Positions 1-17,474 of a stretch of DNA of 17,474 nucleotides are shown here, piece by piece (positions within the stretch are counted from its first letter, which is position 1; each line of letters begins with the position of its first letter). Source of the DNA: Amoebophrya sp. A120 (Eukaryota > Protista > Dinoflagellata). The notes beneath the pieces are model-generated. The model was not told the DNA's origin. It did no database searches and was given only the letters and a program-made list of their open reading frames with translations. The translations under genes and the position numbers were made by a program. Location of the stretch: NCBI GenBank assembly GCA_905178155.1, contig CAJINV010000050.1, forward strand, positions 1-17,474, read 5' to 3'.

Positions 1-310
1 GCAAATCACACAAAACCCCCCCTGCTGATTTTTCCAACGCTGCAAAAAGCCGGCAAAAAAGCTGCCCGGTTCGACTCCGGAAACACTCTTGGAAGCTCTT
101 CGGGGTTCGGCTAGGTTTTTGGCGCTTCCGCGCGAAGGTTTTGCGGGTTGCAAATCACACCAAAACCCCCTCTGGTGATTTTTCCAACGTTGCAAAAAGC
201 CGGCAAAAAAGCTGCCCGGTTCGACTCCGGCAAGCAACTCTCTCGGAGGTTCTTCGGGGTTCGGCTAGGTTTTTGAAGTCTGTCTGCGAAAAGCGAAAGC
301 CCTTGCGGTT
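1..310. repeat. ~149-150 bp GC-rich tandem repeat, 2 copies visible, truncated by window start; each has a tRNA-type B-box
   Basis: GCAAATCACAC(C)AAAACCCCC...TGCAAAAAGCCGGCAAAAAAGCTGCCCGGTTCGACTCCGG...CTTCGGGGTTCGGCTAGGTTTTTG starts at 1 and 150; GGTTCGACTCC at 68-78 and 218-228. Confidence 0.9.
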
Positions 311-535
311 ATTCGTGCCCGCGAAGCCTGCAAGGTGCGCAGGGTGCCCTCGATAATTGTGGCGCCCGCGATTAGTGGGGCGGCGCCCCTGTATCTATAC
401 TCGATCGCCGGGTCCGTTTCTTCTAGTTACTTACTTAAATAGAAAAAAGGTAAAGGAGGCACCCTCGGTCGCCGTTTTCAATAAATCAATGCTGGCTTTT
501 GGAAGTAGGAGCCGGCCCGCCGCTTTTCGTAAATG

Positions 536-796
536 GTACACACGCGAGCGGGTGGTCACGGTGGCGGCCGAGACTGCGCGTCCGTCCGTCCGTGCGGCCT
601 TGGCCGGTATGCAAAGGCAAACAAAGGGCCTCGCTCATGCCTCCGTGTCTGTTGTGCTGCGTAAAAAAAAAGATGGCCCGGCCTCGCCAAGTGCTACGTT
701 GGTAGCGTTTGTTCTTCCTCGTGGAGAGGCCCCTCCTATCCTGTTCACCTTCTTGAGAGCGAGAGAACCCCTTGCCATGCAACTGTGCGCGTATAC
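536..796. mobile_element. tentative fold-back insertion, 261 bp
   Basis: GTACACACGC...GCGCGTATAC ends (weak inverted repeat), exact ATG/ATG flanks (533-535, 797-799); removal joins ...PPLFVN to DEGKEENRRESPGSPSNNMQLFGIHI in frame. Confidence 0.4.
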
Positions 797-1161
797 ATGA
801 AGGGAAAGAAGAAAACCGTAGAGAATCACCTGGGAGCCCCAGTAACAATATGCAGCTTTTTGGAATACATATAGTGGTAGAACTCCTTTTATCACACACG
901 CGCCGCCAGCAGTGAAGTTCCTTTTTCTGAATCACAACAAAGAGAAAACCGAGACAAATGAGAGCAGGCGTTTTTATGGTTAGGGTAAAGTGTAGCCAGC
1001 GCTATGACAGAGACAGAGAAGCTTTTAGTTCTGTGCGAAGATAATCCGCTACATAGTATCGGGATCAAGTACTAATACATAATCGCTGCAATTCGCTATC
1101 CTAGTTGTCTACTACCGCAGGTTTCTTCTGATACTCAGCCGCTGCAAAGATGTATAATCTT

Positions 1162-1519
1162 CTACGTAATGCAAATTCGTCTGAGTCTGGGAGGCATGCA
1201 AACCTTCATAATTGTGGAGTTGAGAAGAACAAGAAGCAACAGAAAAAGTTTCTTTTTCTTTTTCTATTGCCTCTTGTCCTTGTTCATTCCCAGTTTACTG
1301 TTTTAGTGCTGCATAAATGCACCCTGTTGTAATGCTGCTTACGCATTGGATCGGTGTATGAGAGGAGTAGCGTGGACGCGCAAATAAAAGAAAAGTATTG
1401 GTATTCATCTTGAATGAAAGAACTTATCATGCCTCGGTGGGTAGTGAAGTCGAAATCCGTGGCGCATGTTGAGACTACCGTTGCAAGTTTCCAGACCCAG
1501 ACGCATTTGCATCTGATTG
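1162..1519. mobile_element. fold-back insertion, subfamily A, 358 bp
   Basis: left CTACGTAATGCAAATTCGTCTGAGTCTGG vs reverse complement of right end CAATCAGATGCAAATGCGTCTGGGTCTGG; flanks CTT/CTC. Confidence 0.75.
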
Positions 1520-1604
1520 CTCCAGCAAAATCGTACTGGAGGAGCACCAGCTGCTGGCCTCCAGTTTCGGCCTGTCCTACTCCCGACAACCGAAACGCCG
1601 AATC

Positions 1605-1827
1605 GTATGCAAGACAGATTCGCTGTCCACACACAAAAGATAGCACGAAACCTGACACCCGGAGCACTTGCGATGGCATGTTGAAAACGTGCTAACCAAT
1701 GGAGTAGAAAGAGATTAGAATAAATCCTCAGCATTGAGAAGAGAACCTGTTTTGTAACGAGCATGCAGATAATGACATGTAAGCGCAGCCATTGGTTGTA
1801 CGTGTGCAGCGAAGTTGTAGTGGATAG
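1605..1827 (+). mobile_element. fold-back insertion with GT...AG termini (candidate introner), 223 bp
   Basis: left GTATGCAAGACAGATTCGCTG vs rc right CTATCCACTACAACTTCGCTG (15/21); flanks ATC/ACC; removal keeps frame. Confidence 0.7.
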
Positions 1828-1861
1828 ACCAGCGAATCACCCGTTTGGAGCAGCGCATGGT

Positions 1862-2211
1862 GTATCGAAGAAAAAAGCTATGTTTTTGTTTAGTGTGAGT
1901 GTCCTGTCTTGTAGAGCCACAGCATGCAAAGCAGTTTACTCACATTTGTCATGTTGGATAGGCATGGAGCCCTCCCCTTTTCAAATAGCCACTCACGTCG
2001 TACTAGTATACGCATGACACACCTTCTCATTTTCAGATAGGCATGAAGCACCTTTTGGTATCGGCATAGATAAATAGATAAAAGCCTATCGTGCCAAACT
2101 ATGTTTAGCACGATAGGCGGTCTATTTATCGTAATACCGGGCTGTAGGCTTCTCAATCTCATGCGGTCGCGCCAACAAACTTAAACTAAAAGAGTTTTTT
2201 TCCTGCGATAT
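1862..2211. mobile_element. fold-back insertion, 350 bp
   Basis: left GTATCGAAGAAAAAAGCTATGTTTTTGTTTAG vs rc right ATATCGCAGGAAAAAAACTCTTTTAGTTTAAG; flanks GGT/GGC; removal with one TSD copy restores heptad RMATAEN. Confidence 0.8.
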
Positions 2212-2410
2212 GGCCACCGCCGAGAACCGGGTCACAAACGTGGAGGGCTCCGTGGTAGGACTCTCAAACCGCATGAATACGGTTGAGAACCGAGTCGACA
2301 AGGCGGAGGGTAAGATTGGCATCCTCGAGATTGCCGCCGAGGAGACCAAAATTGCGCTCGAGGCGGACGAGTATAAGGCTATCCGATGCAAATATGTCAC
2401 GGACTGAAAA

Positions 2411-2696
2411 GTATGAACTGCAAATGTGTCCGGGTCTGGAGGCGTGGAGCTTGTGATGCTGTCTTGTTTGGATACTCATTATATATAACACCTGTATTGC
2501 ATGACCAGCTAGAAGAGTCCAGTTTGTGCTAGTACGCGGAGGGTGCATTTTTCATGCGGACTCGGCATCAGAAAGTGAAAGGGTTCTGGAAATCTGTGAT
2601 GCTAAGTCATGCAATACAGGCGTTATGGGTCATGCAAAATTATATGCATGACAAGCCTGGCAATCTTCCAGACCCAGGCATAATTGCAGTTGATAG
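2411..2696 (+). mobile_element. fold-back insertion, subfamily A, GT...AG termini (candidate introner), 286 bp
   Basis: left GTATGAACTGCAAATGTGTCCGGGTCTGGA vs rc right CTATCAACTGCAATTATGCCTGGGTCTGGA (24/30); exact AAA/AAA TSD; four GCATGAC/GTCATGC motifs inside. Confidence 0.85.
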
Positions 2697-2920
2697 AAAG
2701 CAGAAATGTCACTTCGTTGTAGTGCTCCGGATGGCGTCGCCAGTGGCTGTCAATCACGCCTCAGCAAGAGGTTGCGGCAGCAGGAGCTTCTCGCTCTGCT
2801 CGTTGCCAGAAAGTTTGTGGAGCCCAGTTGGTACTAAGTAGCCAAGGTGGCGACTGCACGTGCCAAGGCTCGTCTTGTTCAAGCATGACATGGCTTCAAT
2901 AATGTACACACACACACAGA

Positions 2921-3127
2921 GAAGAAGAGCTAGTGCAAGCTCTGCTTTCCGTGGCAGTGACGTATTTATATTGGATAAAGAAGATAGCCGCGCAGCTGAC
3001 GTCCCTTCGCTCCCGCTACTTCGCTGGGCCGGTGTTCGCCGAGATGCAGGAGGCATTGGAGTATCCTGATGAAAATTATGGAAACTACCCTAGAAATTGG
3101 CCACGCATGTTTGACATGATCAACTAG
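2921..3127 (+). pseudogene. protein-like fragment, possibly the 3' part of the 1150 gene after stops/frameshift
   Basis: EEELVQALLSVAVTYLYWIKKIAAQLTSLRSRYFAGPVFAEMQEALEYPDENYGNYPRNWPRMFDMIN*; preceded by a short (CA)n run that could have slipped. Confidence 0.4.
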
Positions 3128-3464
3128 CAACGCAGAGACTGTGCTTTATAATTCTTGCGCTCGGTCTCGGATAAGGATTGCATTACAAAATCGGGTAGTT
3201 GGAGATTTTCTCTCCGCATATCGGAAACGCGTTTGACATGCCCTGGACGACGGAAAACATCAGGGACCTACTTATGCATTGCAAAAGGATCGCACCACTA
3301 GCAATACATTTAGAGCGCACAACAATGGGAAGTAGCCTCCCAAGTTGAACACGAGGTCGCATCGTAAAGCTGCCTAAGGTACTTTGGTGCCAGACTTGTC
3401 ATGCAGTCCTGCAAGTAGTGTGATTGTGATATTATGAGTGCGATACTTTTGTGAAGAATACTTC

Positions 3465-3788
3465 CTATGCGGTGCAAACATGTCTAGGTCCACTCTGAGA
3501 CCCTGACTCGCGGTTGAATCAACAGGCAGCATCGTGTAGGATTGAAACAAGGATCCAAGCGAGCACATACATGACAAAACTCCAGAGCTGAGATGCCTAT
3601 ATACGTGGCGCGCATGATAGTTAAGTACGCAGCTCCTGTGCCTCTTTACATGACAAAAGTACAGGCACTGGCGCTGGCTAGACACCCAATGCAACACTGA
3701 CAGAGCCCCAGTGGGCAACAAGAACAGGCACCAGTACAACTGTGACGCATCCTCCTCTTGCAGACTCTGACTAGTTTGCAACGCATAC
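3465..3788. mobile_element. fold-back insertion, subfamily A, CT...AC (GT...AG on minus strand), 324 bp
   Basis: left CTATGCGGTGCAAACATGTCTAGGTC vs rc right GTATGCGTTGCAAACTAGTCAGAGTC; TSD not clear (TTC/TGA). Confidence 0.7.
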
Positions 3789-3790
3789 TG

Positions 3791-4336
3791 ATGCCCCGGA
3801 AGTTCTCGCGGGAAACGGCCCCGGACTGCATCAACGACGGCTCTGAGTCTCTCCCGGAGCAGAAGCAGGCGCTGCACGTCTGGAAGGAATACGTACTCGA
3901 GTCGAAGTCTGCCTGCGACAAGATTCTGTTCGACCAGAGCATCGCCATGTCGGAAACAGAAATCAAGGCGCTGCAGATGTGTAGCGACCTGATCGGAGAC
4001 TTCTGCGACGGACTGCAGATCAAGACGGGGGACAGCAAGAATTTAACCATCAACCAGCACGAGACCTTATGGAGGGGAAGGGATTGTCTTTCATCTCTCA
4101 CACAGAAAATGAAAACTGCATCAGCAACATCCTAGTCCTACAAAGAAAGAAAATAAAAGCTACACTGTCATACGCTTACGCACCGGCACGGCATTGGCAT
4201 GCTGTTTTTTCCTTACACACTGGAGCTTTTTTTGGCCAAGTAGAACAACTGCGGAAAGCCATTCGCTTCCCCTCCATACATAAAAACCACTGCGGATTGC
4301 GGCCCAGCTTCCCCGCCGGACGCGCCCTCCGCGTAA
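3791..4336 (+). pseudogene. coding fragment of unknown function split by insertion 4067-4279
   Basis: GC3-rich frame MPRKFSRETAPDCINDG...KNLTINQHET (3791-4066) continues in frame after the insertion as IKTTADCGPASPPDAPSA* (4280-4336). Confidence 0.55.
4067..4279. mobile_element. fold-back insertion, 213 bp
   Basis: left TTATGGAGGGGAAGGGATTGTCTTTC vs rc right GTATGGAGGGGAAGCGAATGGCTTTC (22/26); TSD degenerate (ACC/ATA). Confidence 0.85.
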
Positions 4337-4733
4337 GAACTCATCTACACGCAGCTGGAGCTGAAACTGTACGTCTCTTTATCACTCATCTTCCTTGTTC
4401 GTCTTCTACAACTACGCTAGGCAATCACGGACAACAACGGCGCAAAGAGAAAACGGACACCCACGTGGTTTCGCCGGTATATTGAGGAATTTACGTTAGG
4501 TTTGAGTTTGTGTTTGTCATGCATGATATTATCTCCTTCTTACGGAGGCGAGAAAAATTTAATTTTTTTGAAAGAAAATAGCCACAGATGCTTTTTTTGT
4601 ACCTTCATCTCGCCGATGCAAGAAATAATAAAATAAACTTCGGAGGTGGACGACTGTAGGGTCGACAGGTCGGGCGGTTCGAGACGAGATCGACAGGTCG
4701 GGCACAGGAACGAACTTCGTGAAAAACGTGTGT

Positions 4734-4980
4734 TTATCGGCTGCAAACATGTCGGGAGCTGGAAACTTTTGTTGCTCATACCGGGACTGCATGACGGCCA
4801 CTCAGACTGCAGAAGAGCAGGAATATGACTAAAGGACTCATTCGTATTTAGCATTACAAACTGCGATCCAGCATGACAAAAGGATTTGCCGCTCCTGCCA
4901 TTCATGCGTCACAGATCTTGCAGTTGTCCTTGAAGGTATCACATCACAAATCCAGGCCCAGACATTTTTGCAAGGCATAG
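4734..4980. mobile_element. fold-back insertion, subfamily A, 247 bp, ends ...GCATAG
   Basis: left TTATCGGCTGCAAACATGTCGGGAGCTGGA vs rc right CTATGCCTTGCAAAAATGTCTGGGCCTGGA; flanks TGT/GGT; GCATGAC at 4789 and 4871. Confidence 0.7.
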
Positions 4981-6405
4981 GGTGCTTGTCCGCTAACAGG
5001 TGTTGCAAAGATCACCACGATGTATTTTACACACCTTTTTCAATCACAGTGTGCACGGCATGACAGTTTTGGCAGCTGGCTGCAGAAGAACAAGAACATA
5101 AAAGTGGTGCATCAATGTCGTGCGAGAAGTAGATCTGCAGGGACAGTAGATACACGCAGACTTTGTCCAACGAAGCAAACACAATTGGACATTTCCATTT
5201 GAAGAATTTATAAAACGTCGTCAAGCATCTACTCCACTATCACTAGTCACACAAAAATTTACAGGTTTTAGAACAGAATTTTTTGATTACAGTAAGTACA
5301 CTCTTTCGCGAGTACAGGCAAAGCTCGTTCTAATTGATATCCATTGAAAAGCATGTGAAGTAGCGTGCATTTATTTTTTTGTATCTCAGATTCGGTACCA
5401 AGTCTTTGCAATTACGCTGTGTGCGCCTGTCCAATTGCAAAGATGATTGCGACTGCAGCAGCAGCTGGAATGAGAATTAGAACACGAAATACAGATAAGT
5501 CGTCCCATGTTGGCGGTTAAATTGGTAGCGACTGAAATTCAAATTGTAACTCATTGTATAGTAGCAGCAAGTGGCGCAAGAAGCGTCAATGCTTTCCCCG
5601 TATCGACGTCTTGGTCCGTAGACGTACAGAAGGGGACGAGCGCAGCCCCGAAACTGGGTCGCAAGCAGCAATTACTATTCTGGCAATATTACTTCTGCTG
5701 CGCTTGCGTGAGTGTTCAAAAATGAAGCTGCGGAACTCCGATAAAAAAATTCGGGCGCGTGTTGACGTTTTCTGTGTCTACGATAAGTGTCGAAGTTGTA
5801 AGATTTCGTGCGTCGCGCAAGAGCGTCCTGCGAGTCATGCGCCCCATGATTGACTATTTTCTCGGTTTTTCAATTCAGCAAATTTGCTTCGCGTGCTCCG
5901 CCGCACGATACAAACATAAATGTAACTTTTGTGCTACGCTTTCGAGCCTCGATCGTCCATCTATTTTTGTTCTGTAGCGATTTACGTGGGATTTCGTGTC
6001 GTCTGTGCATTGTGTTGTCGTTCTCGACCAAGATCTTTATTTGGTCTCTCGTGAAGCGGCATTGATTTTCGCGCACTTGATGAAGTACTAGACGCAGCTG
6101 CTGATTAGCGATTGAATTTACAACGCATCAAGATTGAGCAACATCGCGTACTCGACATGCGAAAAACTGAAATATTCTTCTCCGTTCGCAGATCGTTGAG
6201 TACAGTTTAGGGTGTCCTTAGAGAAGACTTCGTTTTTTGTTTCACCACGACTGAAGCCGAAGAGGAAAACATGCCTTTGCGTCAATCCTCGTCCCGGTCC
6301 CGACCTATTCCTCCTTAACCACGACAGCGCACGTTGTGCGCGCCGTGAAAGCTCAGCCGAAGTATACAACGACCACTAGGTACTAGTGTTGGATTCGCCA
6401 CTAAC

Positions 6406-7882
6406 ATGACGAGAAGAGACAATAATGGGGCGAGAGGATCCGCAGACCCGCCTCCCTCCGGTCGCGAAGTGGACGATGATGAAGAGGCGACGAGACAGAG
6501 GGAAGAGCGGATGCAAGCGCGGCGGCAACGATGCGACCAGCTTCTCGCGGTTGCGGACGGCGCGGAGGAGAACCGGGAAAACAAAGGGCAAACGCAACAG
6601 CAGCAGGAAGGGACAGCTAGCTCTACTAGCGCCAGCGGGCAAAGCCTGGGCCGGCATCCTGGTCCTCCGTCCGACCACGACGAAGCTACTTCCACCAAAT
6701 CTGTGTCCACGACGCCCTTGGAGGCCACGCAGAGCGGTGTGAACACGGATCCGGAGGACAAAACCGGCAGCCGCCTAATATGCATTGCAAATGTGATGTC
6801 TGGGGGTGGATCATGGGCGCATCAAGTTTGTCATGCCACGACTTGAGTTGGATTTCATTGTGCTTGAGCTTGTGGTGCATGTACAACAGAAAAACAGCCG
6901 CGCAGAAGAGAACTTTTGATGATCAAGAAGAGGACAGTAAGTGACTTTCCATGCAAAGTGGGCACTCTTGGGAAGTTCTCCAAAGAACTTGTCATCCAAC
7001 GGCCTGCGTTACAGAATTTTAGTTTTGCTAACTTCCGGACCACAAGTGGCACAGTTGTGAGTCTAGTTCAAAGACCTTCAGCAGTCGTGCTCCTGCAGAC
7101 CCCCCGGACATGATTGCAAAGCATACCTGCGCTCGCTGTATAGCAACACACTGCGGAAACTCAACAAGGACGTAGAGGACTCCAGAAGCAAGATAACGGC
7201 TGTGCATTCCCAAGTCCAATTTAGTTGGGATGAGGTTCATCGTGTCGTCGGTGACGGGCAGTGGGAGGTAGATCTCGTGCAGATGAAAGCTACAATCAGG
7301 AAGCTGGGCTACATGAATCAGGACCTGTGGCGACAGATTGACACCATTGCAGCCGGTCGGGGCCACGCCGCTGCCAATCCATCTGCGACTACTCGCGCAC
7401 TCATAATGAAGTTCAACAATGTATCCTATGTAAAAACGTCCCCACCCACGAATCAGAATCAAGAAGTAGATAGGGACTTTCCCATCAAAGTCATCAAGTT
7501 TATTTAAGTATAGTGCATGACAAATTTGATCTGATAGCGTAGTGCTGTTTAGCCTGTTCAACCGCATCGAAAATCCACTGCCTTGCACTTATTCCAGCAT
7601 GACGAGGAGCTCCAACAAATTACTAGCATTAGAAAAAAATATGTCCCCTGTCCTTGTGGCTGCGCATGAGAAAGATTTATTTTCGGCTCGCAGATTCATA
7701 GCATGACATTGACAACTTCTGGGCGGGAACGTTTTTACACAGAATACCAAAATCCTAGTTACTCTAGCCTGAAGGACGCCGTGAGTGCGGTGCAAGACGA
7801 TGTGGACGACGTGAAGGTTACCGCAGCTGAGCTGGAGACGAACTATGGTCGACTTTTTGAAGACTTATTCACTGGAAAGTAA
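6406..7882 (+). CDS. split hypothetical protein (~270 aa; low-complexity acidic N-terminus, helical C-terminus); segments 6406-6777, 7127-7426, 7742-7882
   Basis: Stop-free after removing two insertions: MTRRDNNG...DKTGSRL|LRSLYSNTLRKLNKDVEDSRSKITAVHSQVQFSWDEV...KFNNVS|EYQNPSYSSLKDAVSAVQDDVDDVKVTAAELETNYGRLFEDLFTGK*; second junction uncertain by 1 nt per side; may continue via a GT at 7879. Confidence 0.6.
6778..7126. mobile_element. fold-back insertion, subfamily A, AT...AC termini, 349 bp
   Basis: left ATATGCATTGCAAATGTGATGTCTGGGGGT vs rc right GTATGCTTTGCAATCATGTCCGGGGGGT; flanks CTA/CTG (both Leu codons in frame). Confidence 0.85.
7426..7742. mobile_element. fold-back insertion, ~317 bp
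   Basis: left CTATGTAAAAACGTCCCCACCC vs rc right CTGTGTAAAAACGTTCCCGCCC (19/22); three GCATGAC inside; TSD ambiguous. Confidence 0.85.
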
Positions 7883-8044
7883 CCGTTCCCAGCGAATTTG
7901 TCATGCAAGACATGTAGGTAAATTCAGTGTTTGTCATGCATAATGCAGGAAATGCAGGAGGGAATGGCCAATTTTCAGGGAATAAGACCACTCGGCGGAG
8001 GATGGAGCGCCGATGTTCGTGATTCAGCAGGTCGGTCTCTTCCA

Positions 8045-8287
8045 GTATGGCGTTCTCAAATGTTACATTCACAACTGTTACATGATTTGTCATGCAAAAA
8101 CACTATCGCTCTTACTTCACACGATCAAGCCTTCTCCGCATGACAACTTCTCGTCGCGCTAGATAGCATTATAATCTGCTCCAAACCTGTAATGCAAAAG
8201 GCCCAATCTTTTCCCTTTCACTTTTGCCGTTTTTGCATGACAAATTTCATGTAACAGTTGAGAGTGTAACGTTTGAGAACGCCATAT
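8045..8287. mobile_element. fold-back insertion, subfamily B, 243 bp, ~56-bp TIRs
   Basis: GTATGGCGTTCTCAAATGTTACATTCACAACTGTTACATGATTTGTCATGCAAAAA (8045-8100) inverted at 8230-8287; exact CCA/CCA TSD. Confidence 0.95.
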
Positions 8288-8758
8288 CCACCAGAATCTC
8301 CAGCAGCAACTGCTCCTGCTTGAGCAGAGCATGGAAACAAACAAGAAAAAGTTACTACGCCTGCAGGGGAACAAGGGCCCAGTTGCAGAGGACGCACTAC
8401 ACGCGCCACAAGGATCATTTTCGGCTGCACACGACGTCGACGGAGGACAAACCAGTAGCAAAATTTCCCTTGCTGGGGCTAAAGTCACCAAAAATGCAGC
8501 ACACCGCCTGTCGGCCAGCAAAGGTTCGGCACTCACAACGGCGCCCAGCAGCCGAAACAGTAAGAGCAGTATTCTCGGCGAGGACGGCAGTACAGCAAAT
8601 TTCGACGACGAAGATTTTGAAATCGAGGATTCGAGCTCCGATACCGCAACTGAGAACAGAGCAGGTGGAAGCAAACTCGCTATGCTGAACAGGGGGCACA
8701 TGCAGCTACAGTCCCATGCGGACGACGAAGATGTTCCGAATTCGAGCTGTGGCGAATC

Positions 8759-8966
8759 GTATGCGTTGCAAATAAAGTATCGTGGTGCTCCGTGCCAGTG
8801 GAAGCTGCATTGCAATTATTACTTTGTTTGTAGAACAGAAATGCTGTTTGTCATGCGAGTTTAGGTGGAAAGAAGCAAATCTGTTAGACATCACGTCCGG
8901 TAGCGGTACTGAATTGCTCGTGCCCTTCTCGGCCTCGGGGTGCGATACTTCTTCTGCAAGGCATAA
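8759..8966. mobile_element. fold-back insertion (A-related), 208 bp
   Basis: left GTATGCGTTGCAAATAAAGTATCG vs rc right TTATGCCTTGCAGAAGAAGTATCG (19/24); exact ATC/ATC TSD; TTTGTCATGC at 8847. Confidence 0.85.
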
Positions 8967-9186
8967 ATCGATTTTGTCTACAATTTCCTGCGGATGCTGC
9001 CGCCGGAAACGGTACAACGCCTCCAGGAGCTTCGGCTCGACCTGTTTGGCTGGAGTACAGTCACCCTGGTTCATCCTGTTGTACCCGTTCCTTCTCTATT
9101 ATGGTCGCGCTCCGTGGGAAATCGCCTTCGGCACAGTGGAAGTTTTTTGTGGTTCTTATGCATGATGAGTTCAATGTCAATCGTTG

Positions 9187-9468
9187 CTATGTAGTGCAAA
9201 CGGACTTTTTATTCAAGTTCAAGTATCAAAGGAGCTTCTGCTGTACCTCTTGCATGCCTGAAAGAAAAATCTGTGTTGCATAGCCAGCAAAGACGGCGGT
9301 TTTGTGCTATTCATACTTGAGGGGCAATTTGTCGTGATAAGCGTGCTAAACATCGGGCTGCGTCAAATGAACTTGTCATGCTGGGGTGCGCTTGAAAGCA
9401 CTAGAAGTACCCACTCTGTAGCATCACAAATTTCATCCCAACCCAGACGACATATATACAAGGCATAG
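9187..9468. mobile_element. tentative degraded subfamily A insertion
   Basis: right end CCCAACCCAGAC...CAAGGCATAG resembles the 4980 end; left CTATGTAGTGCAAA is only a weak partner; no TSD. Confidence 0.35.
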
Positions 9469-9816
9469 TGTCAGTGGTCAGGCAATGCCTGCAACCATTT
9501 CCTGCTCCAATTTGTTGTCGATTTTCCACGCGGCGCTTCCATATTCACGGAATTTACCTCTACTGCAGCGGCTTCGGCGATCTGAATCAGAGCAGGAAAG
9601 GCGCAAAAAGGCAGGTACAGGGAATGTTGATTCATCGGCGTCATTGATTACCAGCACCCTTCGTGTTTTTTCTGCTCGTCCTCGTAGTACTGGTACTAGA
9701 AGAATCTCCTGCACGAAGGTGGGACAGTCGTTGTCTTTTGTTCCCAGAAATGTGTTCAAAAATCTGACTTCCGACAGGTCCGAGCCCCTCGCTCTCCTCT
9801 TTCTCGGGTGGCGAGG

Positions 9817-10065
9817 ACGTTACCCGGACGGCTTTCCGCTCAGGTTTGTTATGATTCGGATCTGGATGTTTTTCGTCGTTACGTCGAAGGAGGTGGAGTT
9901 CTAGCGCCATTGAACCGGGAAGGTGAATCACGGAAGGAAGAACTCCCGGGTGCGGCAGAGCCTACTGCTGGCGCTGTCACAGCAATGCAGGAAGAGGGGG
10001 CTGTGGTCGATGAGGCGCGAGGTCTGCAGGCGTTGGACAACAAAGTAGTGAATTTTGATTGCTGA
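9817..10065 (+). pseudogene. probable exon fragment upstream of the 10220 frame
   Basis: LPGRLSAQVCYDSDLDVFRRYVEGGGVLAPLNREGESRKEELPGAAEP...; pyrimidine-rich acceptor TTTTCTTTTGCAG ends at 10194. Confidence 0.4.
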
Positions 10066-10414
10066 GAGGCCTGTTTCGTACAATTGGTCATTTCGCAATA
10101 AAAGTGATCTATCAGGTGCTGCATAAGCTTCCATACGACGTGTTGATGAAGTTCGTGTTCTTCGTGAACGATCTCGTTTGATTTTCTTTTGCAGCTCCAG
10201 GTCCAGGGAAATAATCTAGTACCTGATCCTGCAGCATCTTCAAGAGAATGAAAATACAATACTTCTCGTCCAGGTAGCAAACCTCACACTGTGGCTGGAT
10301 GAGTTTGCGGGGACCTATGAAGCCAAATGGACAGCGGCGCTCGACGAGTACAAAACGGCGTGGAAGGAAGTGCTGGATAAGTACATGAGCGGAAGCCTGG
10401 AACCAGCGCTCGAT

Positions 10415-10681
10415 GTATCAAATGCAAAAGTGTCTTGGTCTGGAAGAATGCAACTTGTGATGCTGCATTTGGATGTCTAGTAGAAAATTTGTGCTGCATG
10501 AGCAGCAAAAGCAATCTAATTTTCGCTATGCGGAGAGGGCATTTGTCATGCGGAATAGGCATCAAGAATCCATTAGAAAACCTGGGATGCTAGTGCACAC
10601 ATCACGGACATCATGGCGCATGTAAACCGTGCGTGACACGTCTCAGAATCTTCCAGACCCAGACACTTTTGCATTCGATAC
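10415..10681. mobile_element. fold-back insertion, subfamily A, 267 bp, GT...AC
   Basis: 33-bp TIR GTATCAAATGCAAAAGTGTCTTGGTCTGGAAGA vs rc GTATCGAATGCAAAAGTGTCTGGGTCTGGAAGA (31/33); exact GAT/GAT TSD. Confidence 0.95.
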
Positions 10682-10860
10682 GATGAGGCGCGCAACAAAA
10701 CCAAAAAGCTCTTTGACGAGTCCAAGAAAAAAATGTATGACGAGATCAAGAACGACTTGATTGAATTAGCGAAGCGGATTGAAGAAGGCGAAAAGATCGC
10801 GAAAGAAAAAGCAAAGAACGCCACCCAGCAGCTAATACAATTGGGCAACGAACTATTTCA

Positions 10861-11138
10861 CTATGATGCTCTCAAACGTTACACTGATTGTTGTTACTCA
10901 CCTGGTCGTTCTGTGATACAAGGTAGCAAAAGGGACAGGGCAAAGGCAGGGCGGATGCGGAACCTTAGACGTTTCGAATTACAGACCCGGCACAGATTTA
11001 TGTAAGTGCTATCCATCACTTTTTTCGAGAATTTGTTATGGGAAGTCGCTTGGTTATGTGGATGGTGATGTGGGTCGCGACATTTGTCGAAAAAATCATG
11101 TAACAGCAAAGAGTGTAACGCTTGAGAACTCCATATTA
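10861..11138. mobile_element. fold-back insertion, subfamily B, ~278 bp
   Basis: left CTATGATGCTCTCAAACGTTACACT vs rc right ATATGGAGTTCTCAAGCGTTACACT; TCA/TCA flanks with a 2-nt offset. Confidence 0.85.
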
Positions 11139-11630
11139 TCAGCTAGAACGCGGCCGGCTTGCGCTAGTCCTTGCTGCCTACGACGGAATCCGCAAGCAAC
11201 TTCGACTCTGTCTAGCAGGCGGCATGGTAGTCTTAACAAGCTGTGTAAGTCGAGGTTTTCGTTCTGATCAGTTTCAGTGCAGAGCGGTCTCGGAACAACG
11301 ATGACTGTTACTGTTTATCAGCTACACAGAAAATGACCTTCGTTTTGTAGTTTTTTCGGACAAAAAAGCATCGTCAAGAAAAACAAACACCTTCTACCAC
11401 AGGATCCTTTCTCGGAAGCACGACCGGCTACCGGTGTTGGCTGTCTTGGAGTCGAAACTTTGCTTCTTCCACTTCCATCGATTTCTTGAAGTACTTGGTC
11501 GTCCAGAACAAATCCAGGTCAGACGAGATTCCTGGTGAGGCTGCACTTCTACCCCATCTTTTACTTTTACATCATCGTGACCCGACAAGAAGACAACATT
11601 GTAAAAAATTAAATGAAACAGCAATCCCTG

Positions 11631-11907
11631 ATATCAATTGCAGATGTGTCTGGGTCTGGAAGATTGCAAGAGTTGTTATGCGTATTTGCATCAGCATGAC
11701 CCAACATGTAGTTATCTGTGAAGGTGCGTGGATGTTGCTCAAGCATCACAGATTTGGTGACAGCCTCCTGATGCCTATATCACGAGCAAAATGACCTCTC
11801 AGCGTAGCGAAAAGTGGACTCTCCCCGCTTCTCACGCAATACAGATTTTGCACAATCCAAAGGCTGCAGCTGCACCTTGCAGGCCCAGATATATTTGCAC
11901 TGTATAC
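11631..11907. mobile_element. fold-back insertion, subfamily A, 277 bp, AT...AC
   Basis: left ATATCAATTGCAGATGTGTCTGGGTCTG vs rc right GTATACAGTGCAAATATATCTGGGCCTG (20/28); flanks CTG/ATG. Confidence 0.8.
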
Positions 11908-12858
11908 ATGTGTATACTTGAGTTTAATTTTTGCCATGCAAAATGCGAGAACATCTACTTACATCAGCGACAAGAGACCACGGGCACCTTGAACGTAAAC
12001 ATCTTGTTTCTGAAAGCTGCGGACTTTTCTTAGTCTAACCGGACGATCACACCAACTGATTTTGCGATGGAAGCACTCCTGGTGCATCGGTCATAGAAGA
12101 TTCACACTTCACCCAGCACAACAAGTGCAGGTTTGCAGTTGATTTCCGCTCCCCGACCACGACCAGTACCAGATCTTCGTGTTCGCGTTTTGACAAGAAT
12201 AAACCTCATTTCGAGGATTTGTTGTCATTGTTGTTCTAATGGATCGATTCGGTTTTGCTTCCGTTTTATTCACCATTCTCTCCCTGGCAAAACAAGTGTC
12301 GCCTTTGATACGAAGCCCGCTCCTGCAGCATTTTCCACCCCGTCGGTAATGAATATGATCGGTGGAGGGCGAGGGCATTGCCTCACTCGGTTTCCCTACA
12401 GGGATTGACGCAGTGGTCGTTGTAAAGTACGACGAAAAATGTCGAAAAGTGCAGCGTATAAAAATATCATTCAATATCACATCTTAGATTGTGGTTGTGC
12501 CACTGCTCTTGCGGGACCGTCGACCTCTTGTAATTTCTCTGCAGCTCGTGCTCGGTCTCATGTCAACATAATAATACAGAAGTATTTTACTTCATTCGGG
12601 AACATCGGTTTCTGCCTTAATATCTTCGAATAGTCGTGAGATATTTCTTTCTTTCATGTCGTGTGGTGGGTCGTGTGTCTCTGTCTGTGTCGTAGCTTGT
12701 CTAGCGACTGCAGTGGAAGCGTCGCGATTACGCCTCTCATTTGTGGGCTCTCTGGGTGTGCTACCAAATTCTACAGCATCATCTATAGTGGAAAGAAAAG
12801 TTTTAAAGATATCTTCCAAATGATGCAGCAAATAGGCGCGTCGTCGTCCGAAGTATAT

Positions 12859-13126
12859 GTATACCATAGTATGATTTGCACCATGTTCATGTTGCTCTCA
12901 TGAAAAGAACAACAATTATATTCCACATCTCATTCTTGCGACTGACAATGAAAAAAAAAAAAAAACAGCTAGAAGTACGGCCATCCTGGTACTAATTTTT
13001 TTCCGAAGATTATATATGGTAGCCATAAAATGTTGCGCGCACGAGAGCTCAGAGCTCGTCTTTTTTCCTTTCCAGTCCTAGGTAGCGCACCGCAACTTAT
13101 TGGGAGGATTTAGCACTCTCGTATAT
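12859..13126. mobile_element. tentative fold-back insertion, 268 bp
   Basis: left GTATACCATAGT vs rc right ATATACGAGAGT; flanks TAT/TGT; removal gives RYLPNDAANRRVVVRSI|LSLLRFVVFAQRFFDRTTKNAG. Confidence 0.4.
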
Positions 13127-13279
13127 TGTCACTTTTACGCTTCGTAGTATTTGCACAGCGCTTCTTCGATAGAACAACAAAGAATGCCGGGTAACGCAAA
13201 CAGTGGAGCAAGGAAGAAAGAAAATCCAACTTTGTCCACCCAGCGTTGGCAAAAATGGAAACAGGAAGACGAAGAAAAA

Positions 13280-13532
13280 GTATGGCATTCTCGCACTTTA
13301 CGCTGACCATTGTTACGCGATTTGTCATGCCGAATAACGGGCACCCTGTACGCGATCCAGTAGCTTCTACTTGGTGCGCTAGATCGTTTTTTTTGAATCA
13401 GTGCCAAATCTGTAATGCACGAGGCGCAAGACCATGACCAGGACCCCACACCCTTCCCGTTTTTGAATTGCATTTCAGTACAAAATTATGCAAGAGCAAC
13501 CAGTGTAGGTGTAGTGTGGGAGAATGTCATAA
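13280..13532. mobile_element. fold-back insertion, subfamily B, 253 bp
   Basis: left GTATGGCATTCTCGCACTTTAC vs rc right TTATGACATTCTCCCACACTAC; AAA/AAA flanks; TTTGTCATGC at 13321. Confidence 0.85.
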
Positions 13533-13546
13533 AAAAAAGCAGAGAA

Positions 13547-13839
13547 ATATGGGAGTGTCAGGATTGAACTCGACAAAGTTGAAATAACTTGCAACGCCTA
13601 AAATCAATACCAGTCGGAAGCTCAATTTTTCAGCCGCGCATGACAAATTTGAGCAGCGTATAAATCCAGCTTGTCATGCTATTTCGGGACAGAATCAGAA
13701 GGCGTCTTTTATCATGCTCCCAAACAGGCTGACAGTCGGCCTCACTTGCCATCCCTGTAAGGGAGGCATTTCATGCCTTGCAATTTATGCATGACAAATT
13801 ATTTCAACTTTGTCGATTTCGGTCCTGACGCTTCAATCA
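13547..13839. mobile_element. fold-back insertion, 293 bp
   Basis: left ATATGGGAGTGTCAGGATTGAACTCGACAAAGTTGAAATAA vs rc right TGATTGAAGCGTCAGGACCGAAATCGACAAAGTTGAAATAA; flanks GAA/GCA. Confidence 0.9.
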
Positions 13840-13921
13840 GCAACAGTGGCAGGAGGACGAGCGAGCGTCCGAACAGACGATCATCGGACTCATGCGGATT
13901 TTTGTTGGTTTTTATCAATTC

Positions 13922-14206
13922 CTATGCAACAAGAAAAAAACTGTGTAGAAGGTTTACCCTTGTGTTGCGCTGACGATACAAACTAGTATACGCTTGTCAT
14001 GCTTGTTGACATGGATGATACCTAGCATCACGCATGCTTTTACTTTTACGCGCTACTTACGCATGAGAAGATTCTGTTGGCATCCATGCCTGGTTGTCTG
14101 GCGGAGAAGCATGACAACAAAAATTGTGAAGATTTCTGAGACAGATAATTGCCCATGCTGTGTTCTGCTCAAAGAGTTACGCCAACACAATTTTTTTCTT
14201 CAATAA
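13922..14206. mobile_element. fold-back insertion, 285 bp
   Basis: left CTATGCAACAAGAAAAAAACTGTGT vs rc right TTATTGAAGAAAAAAAATTGTGT; flanks TTC/TTG; motifs at 13996 and 14109. Confidence 0.6.
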
Positions 14207-14817
14207 TTGCGAAAGCTCCAAACCTAGCATTGGTACTCGGCGCTCCACCAGCCGTGGTCAGCATCACGGAAGCGGGTGCAGCCTCGTCAGCCTGAAGAAG
14301 CCACGCTCTGTATTACATCTCCTAGACACCGTCTTGATGGTGAATTTGATATGCCCCTGCACATTTCTCCAACAAACTCAAACAGAAGATTTCCTCGCTC
14401 CTAGAGAAAAATTCTGGGTCACGACCTTTGCATAATGAATGTACATCTCCCGACTTGCTAGGCATGTTTTGTCATTTGTGTATTGATAAGAACCTCGTCT
14501 GTTTCATTCTTTTTCTGGGAGTCTCGGTCCTGCTTTACAACCTGCTGTACAACGACAACAAGGGGTATCACATACAAACATGTCTGTGCTCTCTGGAGCA
14601 AAGCAAACTTGCAAATGGTACGCTGACAGGACAGAAACATTTTTCATGTGTCTGCGAAAACCTACAGGAACTTGTTCTGTCTTTTACCCAAGAAGGCTTT
14701 CCTTTCAAAATTGTCATGCTTAATACAGTCAGTCCGATACTACCATTGTGGTATCACGTTTCTGCGGATCCAGACATCTTCGCAATGCATAATGACGATG
14801 AAGTGGCCGAGGAGTGG

Positions 14818-15945
14818 GTATGACGGCGTCAACGTACCCAACAAGCATCGCACCCAAGGGGATAAAATTTTTTTTTTTCACAGTAAACGAATTAGATATA
14901 GTTAATTTCGCTACTTAAAGTGCATTAGTTTATTTCATGTGAATTAGCTATGTAAAAAAGACGGCTTTTACGGGTTGCCGGGTGCTAGATCGCCGATATC
15001 CAGCTCGACGGATTCACCGCGGAACCCTAGCAAAAAAACGAGGAAGTGCCCCATGGCGTGGCGTCTGTCTACTGCCCGCGCTTTCCATTGTGCGTGGCCT
15101 GTGGGAGGTTTGGCGCAGCTAGCCGCATCCAGGGGATAGCTGACGGCAAGCCGGCACGGTAAACACGCAAAGCCGCGCGCCCTGCTTATGAGAAAAGGCT
15201 GAGCAGCGTGCCATCGGTTGCCAGGGGGGGTTTCGCCAAAAAGCACCCGCAAGCCAAGTGCAACATGGTCCGCAGGCCGCGGCCTGCAGGGCCGCAGGCG
15301 CGAGGCGGGGGCGCGAGGGGGGTCCGCGGAAGGGGGTCCACGCAGGGCCTCCCGTAGGGCATATTTTTTCCCCTAGCCCCGATGCTGTGGTCGTTTTGTC
15401 CCTTGTCAAAAAGGGAGCATCTCGGAGGGGCATCGCGGACGGGGATCCCGCACTCTCGTGTTGTCCTGTGTGAGGTTAATCTGCCCAGGTAGGAACACAA
15501 CGAAGCCGGGGCAATTTGGATAGCCTCACAAAATGGCTCCCAAGCTCGGCGGAAAGTGGCAGCAAGGCGCAAACAAAACACAGAAAACGGCGGCAAGGTG
15601 CGACACGGCCGTCGCAACTACGTCGTCCTGCTGCCTCGCCACAGGAAGCTGGCCGCCGATCCTCTGCCCCGTGCGCCGCTTCGTGCACTATCTGCGCCAC
15701 GCCTTCGTGTGCAGTATCCCGGCGCCCCTGCGTGGAGACAACCGAGGCGAATCCGTGGAGCTGGATATCGGCGATCTGGCACCCGGCAACCCTTCGAAAA
15801 CGTCTTGTCTAGCTACTTAATCATCTACCCATTTCAATTAAGTACTTGATATAGGTATTTTACCGGCCAGTCCGGCACTAGTTGAAACTTTTTTTTTGAT
15901 CCTTTATGGGTGAGTTGCCTCTTGGGTACGTTGACGCCGTCATAG
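14818..15945 (+). mobile_element. fold-back insertion with GT...AG termini (best introner candidate), enlarged by a nested element
   Basis: left GTATGACGGCGTCAACGTACCCAACAAGCA vs rc right CTATGACGGCGTCAACGTACCCAAGAGGCA (23-bp perfect core); exact TGG/TGG TSD; phase-0 join HNDDEVAEEW|WDDAGYKANRAKSYQELMATIDR*. Confidence 0.95.
14972..15792. mobile_element. nested GC-rich non-autonomous TIR element (true ends may extend to 14919-15811)
   Basis: 51-bp inverted repeats 14972-15022 / 15742-15792 (GGGTTGCCGGGTGCTAGATCGCCGATATCCAGCTC..., 4 mismatches); sharp GC rise; no transposase ORF; GCTACTTAA direct repeat at 14910-14918 and 15812-15820. Confidence 0.85.
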
Positions 15946-16029
15946 TGGGACGACGCTGGTTATAAAGCCAACCGAGCGAAGTCATACCAGGAGTTGATGG
16001 CAACAATAGACCGCTAAACAGTCGTCGTG

Positions 16030-16760
16030 AGTTTTACTTTTACTTTGTCGTGGTTTTTTCACTTTTTTTCGCGTAATTCTTTTCAGGAAACTTTTCTTCT
16101 CATTGTCATTTACGAAGATCTGACACAGCTGAGCTTCGTCTACACGTTCCTTTTCTTCACATATCTTTCATTCCCGTGGGCGTCATATTCCGGCACTTCG
16201 AGTAATGAAGATGTCTTTTCAAAGAACAATATATTGATAAACAAAAACTACTAAAACACTATATCAAAGAGGAACAGTCGCCACACTATTTGTGTGTGGC
16301 CTTTTCTTCTTACCGAAGAGGGCCGTCGCCTTTTTTCCCTGCCTCGGACAATTGACTGAGAGAGTCGCTTCTTGTTTGAAAGGTCCTGCACCTGTCGATG
16401 TAGATTCTTGCAGCACCAGAGGGAAGTCGGTCTTGTCCTCTGTTATGGAAATCATTGAGTCACACGTGCTGTCGTTTGTTGGAGAGAAGGTCAATTTATT
16501 GTTGTTGCACGGAGCTCGTCGGTCATCTCTCCTCGTTCGGCAAGTGGTTTGCAACTTTACTCAATAGTGTGCGTGATACACTGATCAAAATTCTCGAGAA
16601 AAGCGGCCCGATTTGGAAACCGTGTCGCTATTGTCAAATCGCTTTTCGTTTGTCTCGAACCAATTCGGCGTTGCGCGCAGCCCTTCTCGTTGTGCTCGCT
16701 AAGGGTCGTGAACTTGTGACCTTGTCTGTCCCGTCTGAATTGTCACTCAAAACGACACTG
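16030..16760 (-). pseudogene. possible decayed minus-strand coding region
   Basis: K/R/S/T-rich frames (e.g. 16264-16554) broken by several stops; no recognisable domain. Confidence 0.25.
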
Positions 16761-17048
16761 TAAACAAGCATCAATCCAATGCTGTGGATGTTGGTGCTGC
16801 CGACGACGGACGGCGCATATGAAGTTAGTAGAGCTTAAGAGCGTACTACGGAGAGTGAGTGAGGGCGAGTGGAGCAAAGTTGGAAAATTGTTCTTGCTAC
16901 GACAATCGTTGTAGTAGTTACTTACTTAAATGTGTGATATGGTCAAGTGTCACAGCATAGAGCTTCTTGTACGTCGTCGCTCCGGCTAAGATTCCACACG
17001 AGGTTCTATTTGGATTACTACAGTTTTATTAATTACGATTGCAGAAAT

Positions 17049-17474
17049 ATGCGCGGTCGGACGAGACCCCGGAGGGCGCAGTGGGCCGCCCTAGCAACAT
17101 CACACGAGAGAATGACTGCGCAGTTGCAAGCTAGCAACAGCACAAATCCCCCCGCGGGGTTGGCGTCGACGAAAGAACAGCCGGCTAGTGGTAGAAACAG
17201 CACAAACCCGCCCGCGGAGTTGGCCCCGGCTAAGGAAGATGAAGCGGTATCCTGTGCAAAAGTATCATACTCGTAGTAATTGCAGTCATGCATTACAAAT
17301 CTCCTTTCCAAGGTAAAACAGCATGACAAATTTTATTTCTCATGCTGAGCAAATTTGTCATGCAATTTATACTAGTACGAATAGGATGCTTTTGCAATGC
17401 ATAAACGGCTGGTGGCAGCAACAGCACAAAGACAAACCCGCCCGCGGAGTTGGCCCCGGCTAAGGAAGATGAAG
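17049..17474 (+). CDS. partial low-complexity repeat protein, split by insertion 17247-17404, runs off the window
   Basis: MRGRTRPRR...ASNSTNPPAGLASTKEQPASGRNSTNPPAELAPAKEDEA|TAGGSNSTKTNPPAELAPAKEDE; acceptor-like TTGCAG ends at 17044. Confidence 0.55.
17136..17474 (+). repeat. ~60-bp coding tandem repeat (3 copies)
   Basis: AACAGCACAAA...CC(C/G)CCCGCGG(G/A)GTTGGC at 17136, 17196 and 17420; 34+ bp identical between copies 2 and 3. Confidence 0.9.
17247..17404. mobile_element. fold-back insertion (A-related), 158 bp
   Basis: left GTATCCTGTGCAAAAGTATCATACTCGTAGTA vs rc right TTATGCATTGCAAAAGCATCCTATTCGTACTA (24/32); flanks GCG/ACG; motifs at 17285, 17321, 17354. Confidence 0.85.

Follow-up and report, generated by a model that had tools for sequence, protein, structure and literature searches.

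What is the role of a short word that recurs, in both directions, inside insertions that otherwise share little sequence? The question is raised by a 17,474-bp stretch of the dinoflagellate Amoebophrya sp. A120 (contig CAJINV010000050.1, positions 1 to 17,474; hereafter the window), whose genes are interrupted by many insertions carrying the 10-mer TTTGTCATGC (on the opposite strand, GCATGACAAA). We found that TTTGTCATGC, in its general form TTTGTNATGC, is a repeated internal word of elements with TAT...ATA inverted ends, and that these elements form the non-canonical introns of the window. Because the word resembles the subterminal binding-site arrays of terminal inverted repeat (TIR) DNA transposons, we read it, by this analogy and with close to even confidence, as a putative DNA docking site of the protein that mobilises the TAT...ATA elements.

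To establish what the insertions are, we compared the window with sequencing runs that match it. Two of these runs contain 0.96 of the words of the window and four contain 0.34–0.41. Contigs X3–X5 were taken as RNA on the basis of the 0.34–0.41 word share, the insertions that they skip and their absent intergenic cover, and we refer to them as RNA-like contigs. These contigs omit insertions base-exactly, giving 15 direct joints and, once those read from contiguous record coordinates are added, 20 exact introns in all, while the contigs of the DNA-like run X1 continue straight through the joint sites. When the RNA-covered pieces are joined, they yield + strand open reading frames (ORFs) of 495, 253 and 197 amino acids. 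The base-exact skipping and the restored + strand ORFs together indicate that the insertions are introns. We delimited 25 introns in the window without using a TAT criterion, 20 from RNA joints and 5, with inferred boundaries, from the letters found between joints. Their ends include TT..TA, AT..TG, TC..TA and AA..TA, and a few are GT..AG.

Most of the 25 introns have TAT/ATA at both ends or a few bases from them, and many short segments of the window carry TAT(G/C)...(C/G)ATA as inverted ends (arms I2–I13 are among them). Of 14 motif-bearing introns that were folded, 11 have 15 or more of their first 30 nt paired with their last 40 nt. The position of the joint is ambiguous by 3–5 nt at 5 of the 15 listed joints and by 0–2 nt at the other 10. 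At 10411–10680, the TAT...ATA element is removed together with exactly one of the CGATG 5-nt repeats and nothing else, so that RNA removal undoes the insertion. Most insertions are miniature inverted-repeat transposable element (MITE)-like elements that have TAT...ATA as their inverted ends and come with a 5-bp duplication. For 8041–8286 and for elements in the metagenome sample described below, we also observed that RNA loses the element with exactly one of the two 5-bp duplicates, which restores the pre-insertion sequence in the mRNA regardless of the end dinucleotides.

The window holds 15 exact copies of the 10-mer, 9 on the + strand and 6 on the – strand, where 200 dinucleotide shuffles of the window gave a mean of 0.09 and a maximum of 2. 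An initial annotation of this DNA had counted at least 15, and all 15 of its coordinates are identical to ours. The 7-mer core, GTCATGC/GCATGAC, occurs 35 times (18 + and 17 –; shuffle mean 2.67, maximum 8), in agreement with the more than 30 occurrences reported earlier, and TTTGTSATGC with at most one mismatch has 45 matches against 3.71 expected. Beyond approximately aaTTTGTCATGCa, the flanks of the 35 cores are dissimilar. Using the RNA-contig joints to divide the window into intron (8,111 bp), exon (6,092 bp) and other sequence (3,271 bp), we found 15, 0 and 0 copies of the 10-mer and 31, 1 and 3 cores, respectively. The sole core within RNA-covered exon sequence lies at 5058–5064 on the – strand; the cores that are neither in introns nor in exons are an intergenic one at 5834 and two, at 13996 and 14109, in a stretch of unknown status. 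The word had been described as nearly absent from the coding segments, which is borne out by the absence of the 10-mer and the single core in 6,092 bp of exon. Counted by compartment, the word is concentrated in introns in the window and in elements in the sample.

The core is present in 17 of the 25 window introns, and in its 7-, 8- and 10-nt forms it is the most widely shared word of each length among them, above any arm k-mer. A blastn comparison of the 25 introns links just 3 small groups; thus most motif-bearing introns are otherwise unlike. Two families in the window can be aligned, and in these the word stands at homologous sites and is sometimes lost. Family A includes an element at 2412–2695 within a 603-nt intron (2379–2981; joint of 2378 to 2982, arms I9, alignment A1), an intron that has cores at 2499 (–), 2606 (+), 2629 (+), 2646 (–) and 2883 (–) and G-variants at 2450 and 2593. 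The CGATG-flanked element of 10411–10680 also belongs to family A (TAT..ATA at 10416–10680; contig pieces 10274–10410 and 10681–10860, arms I6, alignment A1, nhmmer) and carries a 10-mer at the central site of the family (10542, +) and a G-variant at 10454. A further family A element lies in reverse orientation at 11629–11908 (pieces 11402–11628 and 11909–12092, blastn, alignment), with a core at 11694 (–) and degenerate copies. In family B, the element of 8041–8286 (TAT..ATA at 8046–8286; joint of 8040 to 8287, arms I4 and I16, alignment A2) has 40-nt arms that are 93% complementary, a 10-mer directly inside each arm (8086, +, and 8235, –) and a core at 8138 (–). A family B-like intron with inferred boundaries at 13280–13535 carries its 10-mer (13321, +) at the site equivalent to 8086 (X4 joint of 13279 to 13842 with 10 letters between, repeat D4, alignment A2).

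As an independent sample, we used metagenome contigs in which the arm pattern of family A had 154 matching loci, almost all of them in a single contig set. Merging of overlaps reduced the 154 loci to 55 segments of 353,116 bp, none of which contains the window. In this sample the commonest 7-, 8- and 10-mers are GTCATGC (590 copies), TGTCATGC (501) and TTTGTCATGC (222), where a third-order Markov model gives an expectation of 103 for the 7-mer and 4.85 for the 10-mer. When all family A matches are masked, leaving 312,729 bp, the word is still the first 8-mer and the first 10-mer. The 11 loci from other metagenome sources have 0.12 cores per kb and zero 10-mers, and in viral contigs there were 6 matches to the motif-pair pattern and 4 to the family A arm pattern, which is chance level, with no further word copies. 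The second 10-mer after masking is TTTGTAATGC, and the GTGATGC form is also frequent in the sample, which together point to the generalised word TTTGTNATGC with a free centre. The information in the word reaches the T-run upstream, and there is hardly any downstream. We also noted that subfamilies differ in the centre base, which may be C, G or A; within family A, the left and central (+) copies have the same allele there and the right (–) copy has a non-complementary one.

We searched the sample for elements by structure only (TAT...ATA ends, 14-nt arms with at most 2 mismatches, a span of 80–1300 nt) and obtained 167 non-overlapping elements with a median length of 261 nt. A perfect 5-bp direct repeat lies immediately outside TAT...ATA in 88 of the 167. 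Core density is 6.57 per kb inside these elements vs 0.85 per kb outside; 134 of the 167 have a core and 94 have the exact 10-mer. Grouped by their arms, the elements form 28 families, in which the TAT start is imposed by the search and arm positions 12–15 are A-rich, and at least 10 families with unlike arms carry the word. The initial annotation held that the word is shared by insertions with unrelated TIRs. Unlike arms do carry it in both the window and the sample, but the arms are not wholly unrelated, given the TAT/ATA ends of most introns and the A-rich positions.

Within elements, the copies are arranged with respect to the ends. Among cores 30–49 nt from the nearer end, 87 point inward and 14 outward, where approximately 44 in all would be expected and family A supplies about half of the cores counted; the positional profile relative to element ends thus has an inward peak near the ends. 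In five families with unlike arms, the most frequent site is that of an inward core 33–45 nt from an end, and next comes an outward core at 78–96 nt. Adjacent copies are closely spaced in all orientations, and many copies form TTTGTCATGC...GCATGACAAA pairs 40–60 nt apart. Six cores are present in the family A consensus, which was built from 170 full-length copies, and it is at these cores that conservation is highest. We considered a nested tiny MITE with TTTGTCATGC ends and rejected it, as the copies stand at fixed family sites and have no duplication of their own.

To ask how the word changes with age, we compared 70 disjoint close pairs of family A copies, which differ at 8.1% of word positions, 14.6% of other interior columns and 9.3% of arm positions. 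The word had been said to be better conserved than the TIRs; this is true across families, but within family A the arms are conserved no less than the word. In the 13 pairs with at least 92% identity, the word differs at 5.2% of positions (33/634) vs 6.8% elsewhere (125/1835), and in more distant pairs the values are 6.2% vs 11.4% and 10.4% vs 19.8%. The contrast between the word and the rest is therefore weak in the youngest pairs and strong in older ones. This pattern fits selection on copying lineages better than selection on inserted copies, although the youngest class is small. Elements with a perfect duplication also have more cores, 0.82 per 100 nt (89% of them have a core), vs 0.40–0.59 in elements with a decayed duplication.

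The word is confined, multi-copy, two-way and end-biased like a subterminal array. In these respects the common protein-binding site proposed in the initial annotation is partly supported by the data, while its option of a mark for removal is weakened by the evidence given below. If the word is a docking site, the word arrays would be read by several protomers of a single trans-acting protein, a transposase or one like an integrase, and the arms would provide the cleavage end (TAT) and the fold, not sequence identity. The word would persist in families because only word-keeping lineages continue copying. After insertion, the word would decay, and RNA removal would rely on the paired ends and not on the word. 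A broader form of this proposal, which we regard as possible but somewhat doubtful, is that the TAT-type introner superfamily as a whole has the word as its identity tag, rather than the inverted ends, such that one trans-acting protein would read TTTGTNATGC arrays and the ends would need only TAT and a fold. Hundreds of families with unlike arms would then be able to spread in one genome that has so far yielded no transposase.

Several observations weigh against a docking site. A Pfam search of the 120 longest of the 171 sample ORFs (the other 51 are 200–226 amino acids long) found host-type domains only, with no transposase or integrase among these 120, and the text of Farhat et al. that treats the A120 elements reports no transposase in A120 (Farhat et al., 2021; PMC7789003). 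A 1.13-kb element at 14813–15943 lacks both a long ORF and any copy of the word. Between family A copies that are 80–92% identical, the word changes approximately half as often as neighbouring columns, which could equally be selection on inserted copies, and the test in the youngest pairs is small (33/634 vs 125/1835). In the age proxy that compares perfect with decayed duplications, the decayed class also contains false elements. The sample, having been fetched with the family A arm pattern, is not a random sample of the genome. Finally, the gene strand used to orient the sample elements was taken from the longest ORF within 2 kb, which is a crude proxy.

Among the alternatives, an RNA-level signal survives best, and we consider it unlikely. 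On this view, a factor that binds the word in the transcript would help introns without normal splice signals to be recognised and removed. GCAUG-containing words are intronic splicing enhancers in animals. The elements are indeed missing from the RNA-like contigs, cut out at non-canonical ends; the word is confined to introns; and the slower change of word columns relative to the neighbouring interior in the 80–92% family A pairs would suit such a signal. In the sections that treat splicing, the published A120 work leaves the mechanism open and reports no U1 small nuclear RNA (PMC7789003). However, seven coreless introns are removed base-exactly, and three of these are typical inverted-end elements. 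Two coreless controls are a TAT..ATA element at 4067–4282 (joint of 4066 to 4283, arms I11), whose removal from RNA is base-exact, and a family B copy at 10861–11139 (pieces 10681–10860 and 11140–11225, alignment A2), which is still removed from RNA. Nor does the word have a strand: there are 18 + and 17 – cores in a + strand locus, and family A copies lie 49 with vs 53 against the nearest long ORF. The + and – cores that remain intact number 95/196 and 47/98 in one orientation vs 100/200 and 50/100 in the other. In addition, constraint fades in the youngest pairs, and the word is absent from two GT-AG introns that show no element features (n=2). The word is not needed for RNA removal. Because coreless introns are removed, and because there is neither strand bias nor strand-specific retention, the suggestion that the word marks sequences for removal is weakened. 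A branch-point role, with GCATGAC as a URAC-like site approximately 40 nt before the 3′ end, was ruled out, since the 3′-proximal copies at 7930 and 17354 run in the opposite direction and many introns have no such copy.

We think it quite improbable that the word is a host DNA mark, read by a host protein or a base-modifying system to silence, package or tag transposon DNA. Such a mark would share the anatomy of a binding-site array, the confinement to mobile DNA and the lack of strand sense, but it gives no reason for the fixed inward position 33–45 nt from the end, nor for why elements would retain a word that marks them. A passive relic, left from the interior of a shared ancestor or spread by gene conversion and now without function, seems to us very unlikely. 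Within families, copies do occupy homologous sites, and some copies have lost the word with RNA removal unaffected. Across families, however, the sequence between copies is unalignable, yet the 10-nt word survives in at least 10 arm families; moreover, the six copies coincide exactly with the conservation peaks of family A, and no other 10-mer is as common in the sample. The weakest account, to which we give very little credence, is that paired copies merely lengthen the inverted-end hairpin in RNA or single-stranded DNA: two copies do pair mutually in the predicted folds of 8041–8286, 13546–13841 and 17245–17405, and many TTTGTCATGC...GCATGACAAA pairs have the 40–60 nt spacing, but in 14 motif-bearing introns folded as RNA at minimum energy only 46 of the 168 core bases are matched with another core. 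Many elements carry just one copy, or copies that all point the same way, and a stem would not require unlike families to keep a fixed sequence. The mirrored left/right centres of family A are G/G in 55, C/C in 38 and C/G in 33 of 170 copies, an excess of G/G and C/C over C/G which indicates that the complementarity of mirrored copies is not kept.

The elements are already known; the shared internal word may be the new part. As described in the text of Farhat et al. (2021; PMC7789003), A120 has introner elements with inverted repeats of TAT, approximately 7 variable bases and at least 3 As, with 3–5 nt direct repeats over their boundaries, a length of approximately 240–260 nt and no fixed end dinucleotides, and these fall into many families with no internal transposase. 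To the extent of that description, the window elements are like A120 introners in being absent from RNA, in their non-GT-AG ends, in their end inverted repeats of 8–20 nt or more that can pair, in their boundary direct repeats, and in their TAT-start arms running into As. The exact 5-bp duplication, in 88/167 here, and the one word across families go beyond it. The main and supplement text of PMC7789003 mentions no shared internal word, although its figures, including the logos of Fig. S25, or the datasets of PMC12130899 may show one. A full-text literature search found no paper that combines the word with Amoebophrya or introner, bar a stray 7-mer in PMC6482013. Integrase-related TIR elements of A120 that are Ginger-like, called ‘family 38’, have also been reported (Gozashti et al., 2025; PMC12130899). 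In the features given for it in that account, family 38 is like the elements here in that it forms introns, has terminal inverted repeats and occupies the same kind of genome; unlike family 38, the elements here come with no integrase-homologous ORF among the 120 longest sample ORFs. Duplications of 5 bp are commonly made by retroviral-type integrases. The integrase link of family 38 and the 5-bp duplication, taken together, are a lead only.

Subterminal motifs of TIR transposons include the 12-bp TnpA motif of En/Spm, the hexamers of Ac/Ds and the inner and outer sites of the Sleeping Beauty-type inverted repeat/direct repeat (IR/DR) arrangement. Like these, the word is short, is repeated both ways inside TIRs, is absent from host DNA and is kept in non-autonomous derivatives. 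Each of the known motifs belongs to a single family, whose arms have one sequence and whose transposase is known, whereas here one word serves families with unlike arms. Nonconventional introns of euglenids have no consensus borders, their ends pair and bring the exons together, and they are removed precisely. The introns of the window share the borders without consensus, the pairing ends and the precise removal, and the lineage differs; we know of no duplication-plus-TIR anatomy or shared internal word in the euglenid introns. RBFOX-type (U)GCAUG enhancers of animals work from a single RNA strand and at defined distances from splice sites. They are likewise short, intron-enriched words containing GCATG; unlike them, the word here occurs equally in both directions, and wordless introns are still removed.

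Few known cases of transposon-made introns are as extreme as the introner elements of syndinean dinoflagellates, and to our knowledge neither the enzyme that spreads introners nor the mechanism of RNA excision without splice signals is known. A word common to most families offers a testable handle, as bait for its binding protein, and if the identity-tag proposal is true, as bait for the missing mobilising (or excising) enzyme. The word could also serve as a classifier that unites families split by arm-based clustering, and as a clock-like marker, which young copies have and old copies lose, that separates the needs of transposition from those of RNA removal.

The remaining motif-bearing introns of the window vary in the number and orientation of their copies. 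In the first, at 1862–2214 (joint of 1861 to 2215, inverted ends, TAT..ATA at 1863–2210), there is a core at 2012 (–) and a one-mismatch copy, TTTGTCATGT, at position 1945 (+), the coordinate with which the range given in the initial annotation opens. The intron at 3272–3791 (joint of 3271 to 3792) has a core at 3398 (+) and one-mismatch copies at 3569 (–) and 3648 (–). A GT..AG intron at 4476–4644 (joint of 4475 to 4645) carries a 10-mer 38 nt from its 5′ end (4513, +), and the intron at 6778–7129 (joint of 6777 to 7130) carries one 50 nt from its 5′ end (6827, +). Between these, 4732–4981 (joint of 4731 to 4982) has a 10-mer at 4871, a core at 4789 and a variant at 4851, all on the – strand. 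The element at 7421–7750 (TAT..ATA at 7422–7746; joint of 7420 to 7751, arms I10) likewise has only – copies, a 10-mer at 7515 and cores at 7597 and 7701, and the 124-nt intron at 7860–7983 (joint of 7859 to 7984, ambiguous by 5 nt) has two + 10-mers, at 7897 and 7930. A single 10-mer (8847, +) is found in the intron at 8755–8965 (joint of 8754 to 8966). An intronic stretch at 9098–9774, which surrounds an unplaced 65-nt exon piece (contig pieces 8966–9097 and 9775–10044 with 65 record letters between), has a core at 9375 (+) and a G-variant at 9421 (–).

Towards the 3′ end of the window, an intron with inferred boundaries at 13546–13841 (X4 joint of 13279 to 13842) has 54-nt arms (I2), 10-mers at 13638 (–) and 13789 (–) and a core at 13673 (+). 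The adjacent stretch of unknown status, 13842–14209, in which no RNA-contig joint was seen, contains the cores at 13996 (+) and 14109 (–). The intron at 14565–14795, also with inferred boundaries, has a core at 14713 (+); here the X4 joint runs from 14564 to 15944, and the 17 letters between match 14796–14812. The 161-nt element at 17245–17405 (joint of 17244 to 17406, arms I21) has an interior that is almost all motif copies, at 17285 (+ core), 17290 (– A-variant), 17321 (–), 17336 (+ variant) and 17354 (+).

Very short exons lie between element introns. One of 32 nt (1830–1861) is backed by exact joints, and micro-exons of 10 nt (13536–13545) and 17 nt (14796–14812) are inferred from the letters between joints. 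After the 17-nt micro-exon, one RNA-like contig skips the 1.13-kb element at 14813–15943. This element has 38-nt arms (TATGACGGCGTCAACG...) and a core of 55–63% G+C, around which an 80-nt inverted repeat is nested (14943–15022/15742–15821), and the DNA run contains variant copies of it at several-fold depth. At 10330–10900, 13476–14047 and 17194–17474, the summed word depth of the DNA run exceeds that of neighbouring bins (approximately 43) by a factor of hundreds to thousands; this fits a very high copy number of the element families, although depth is not itself copy number.

An Rfam search of the window found no family at the gathering score. Upstream of the first gene, positions 1–300 hold two copies of a unit of approximately 150 nt (11–83/161–233, 95% identity; 82–121/236–275, 90% identity), which Tandem Repeats Finder did not report. 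At the other end, 17142–17474 is a coding repeat of approximately 230 nt that includes an element intron. Positions 17202–17244 are identical to 17432–17474, and a DNA contig ‘goes back 230’, so that a unit of exon plus introner seems to be tandemly duplicated or collapsed.

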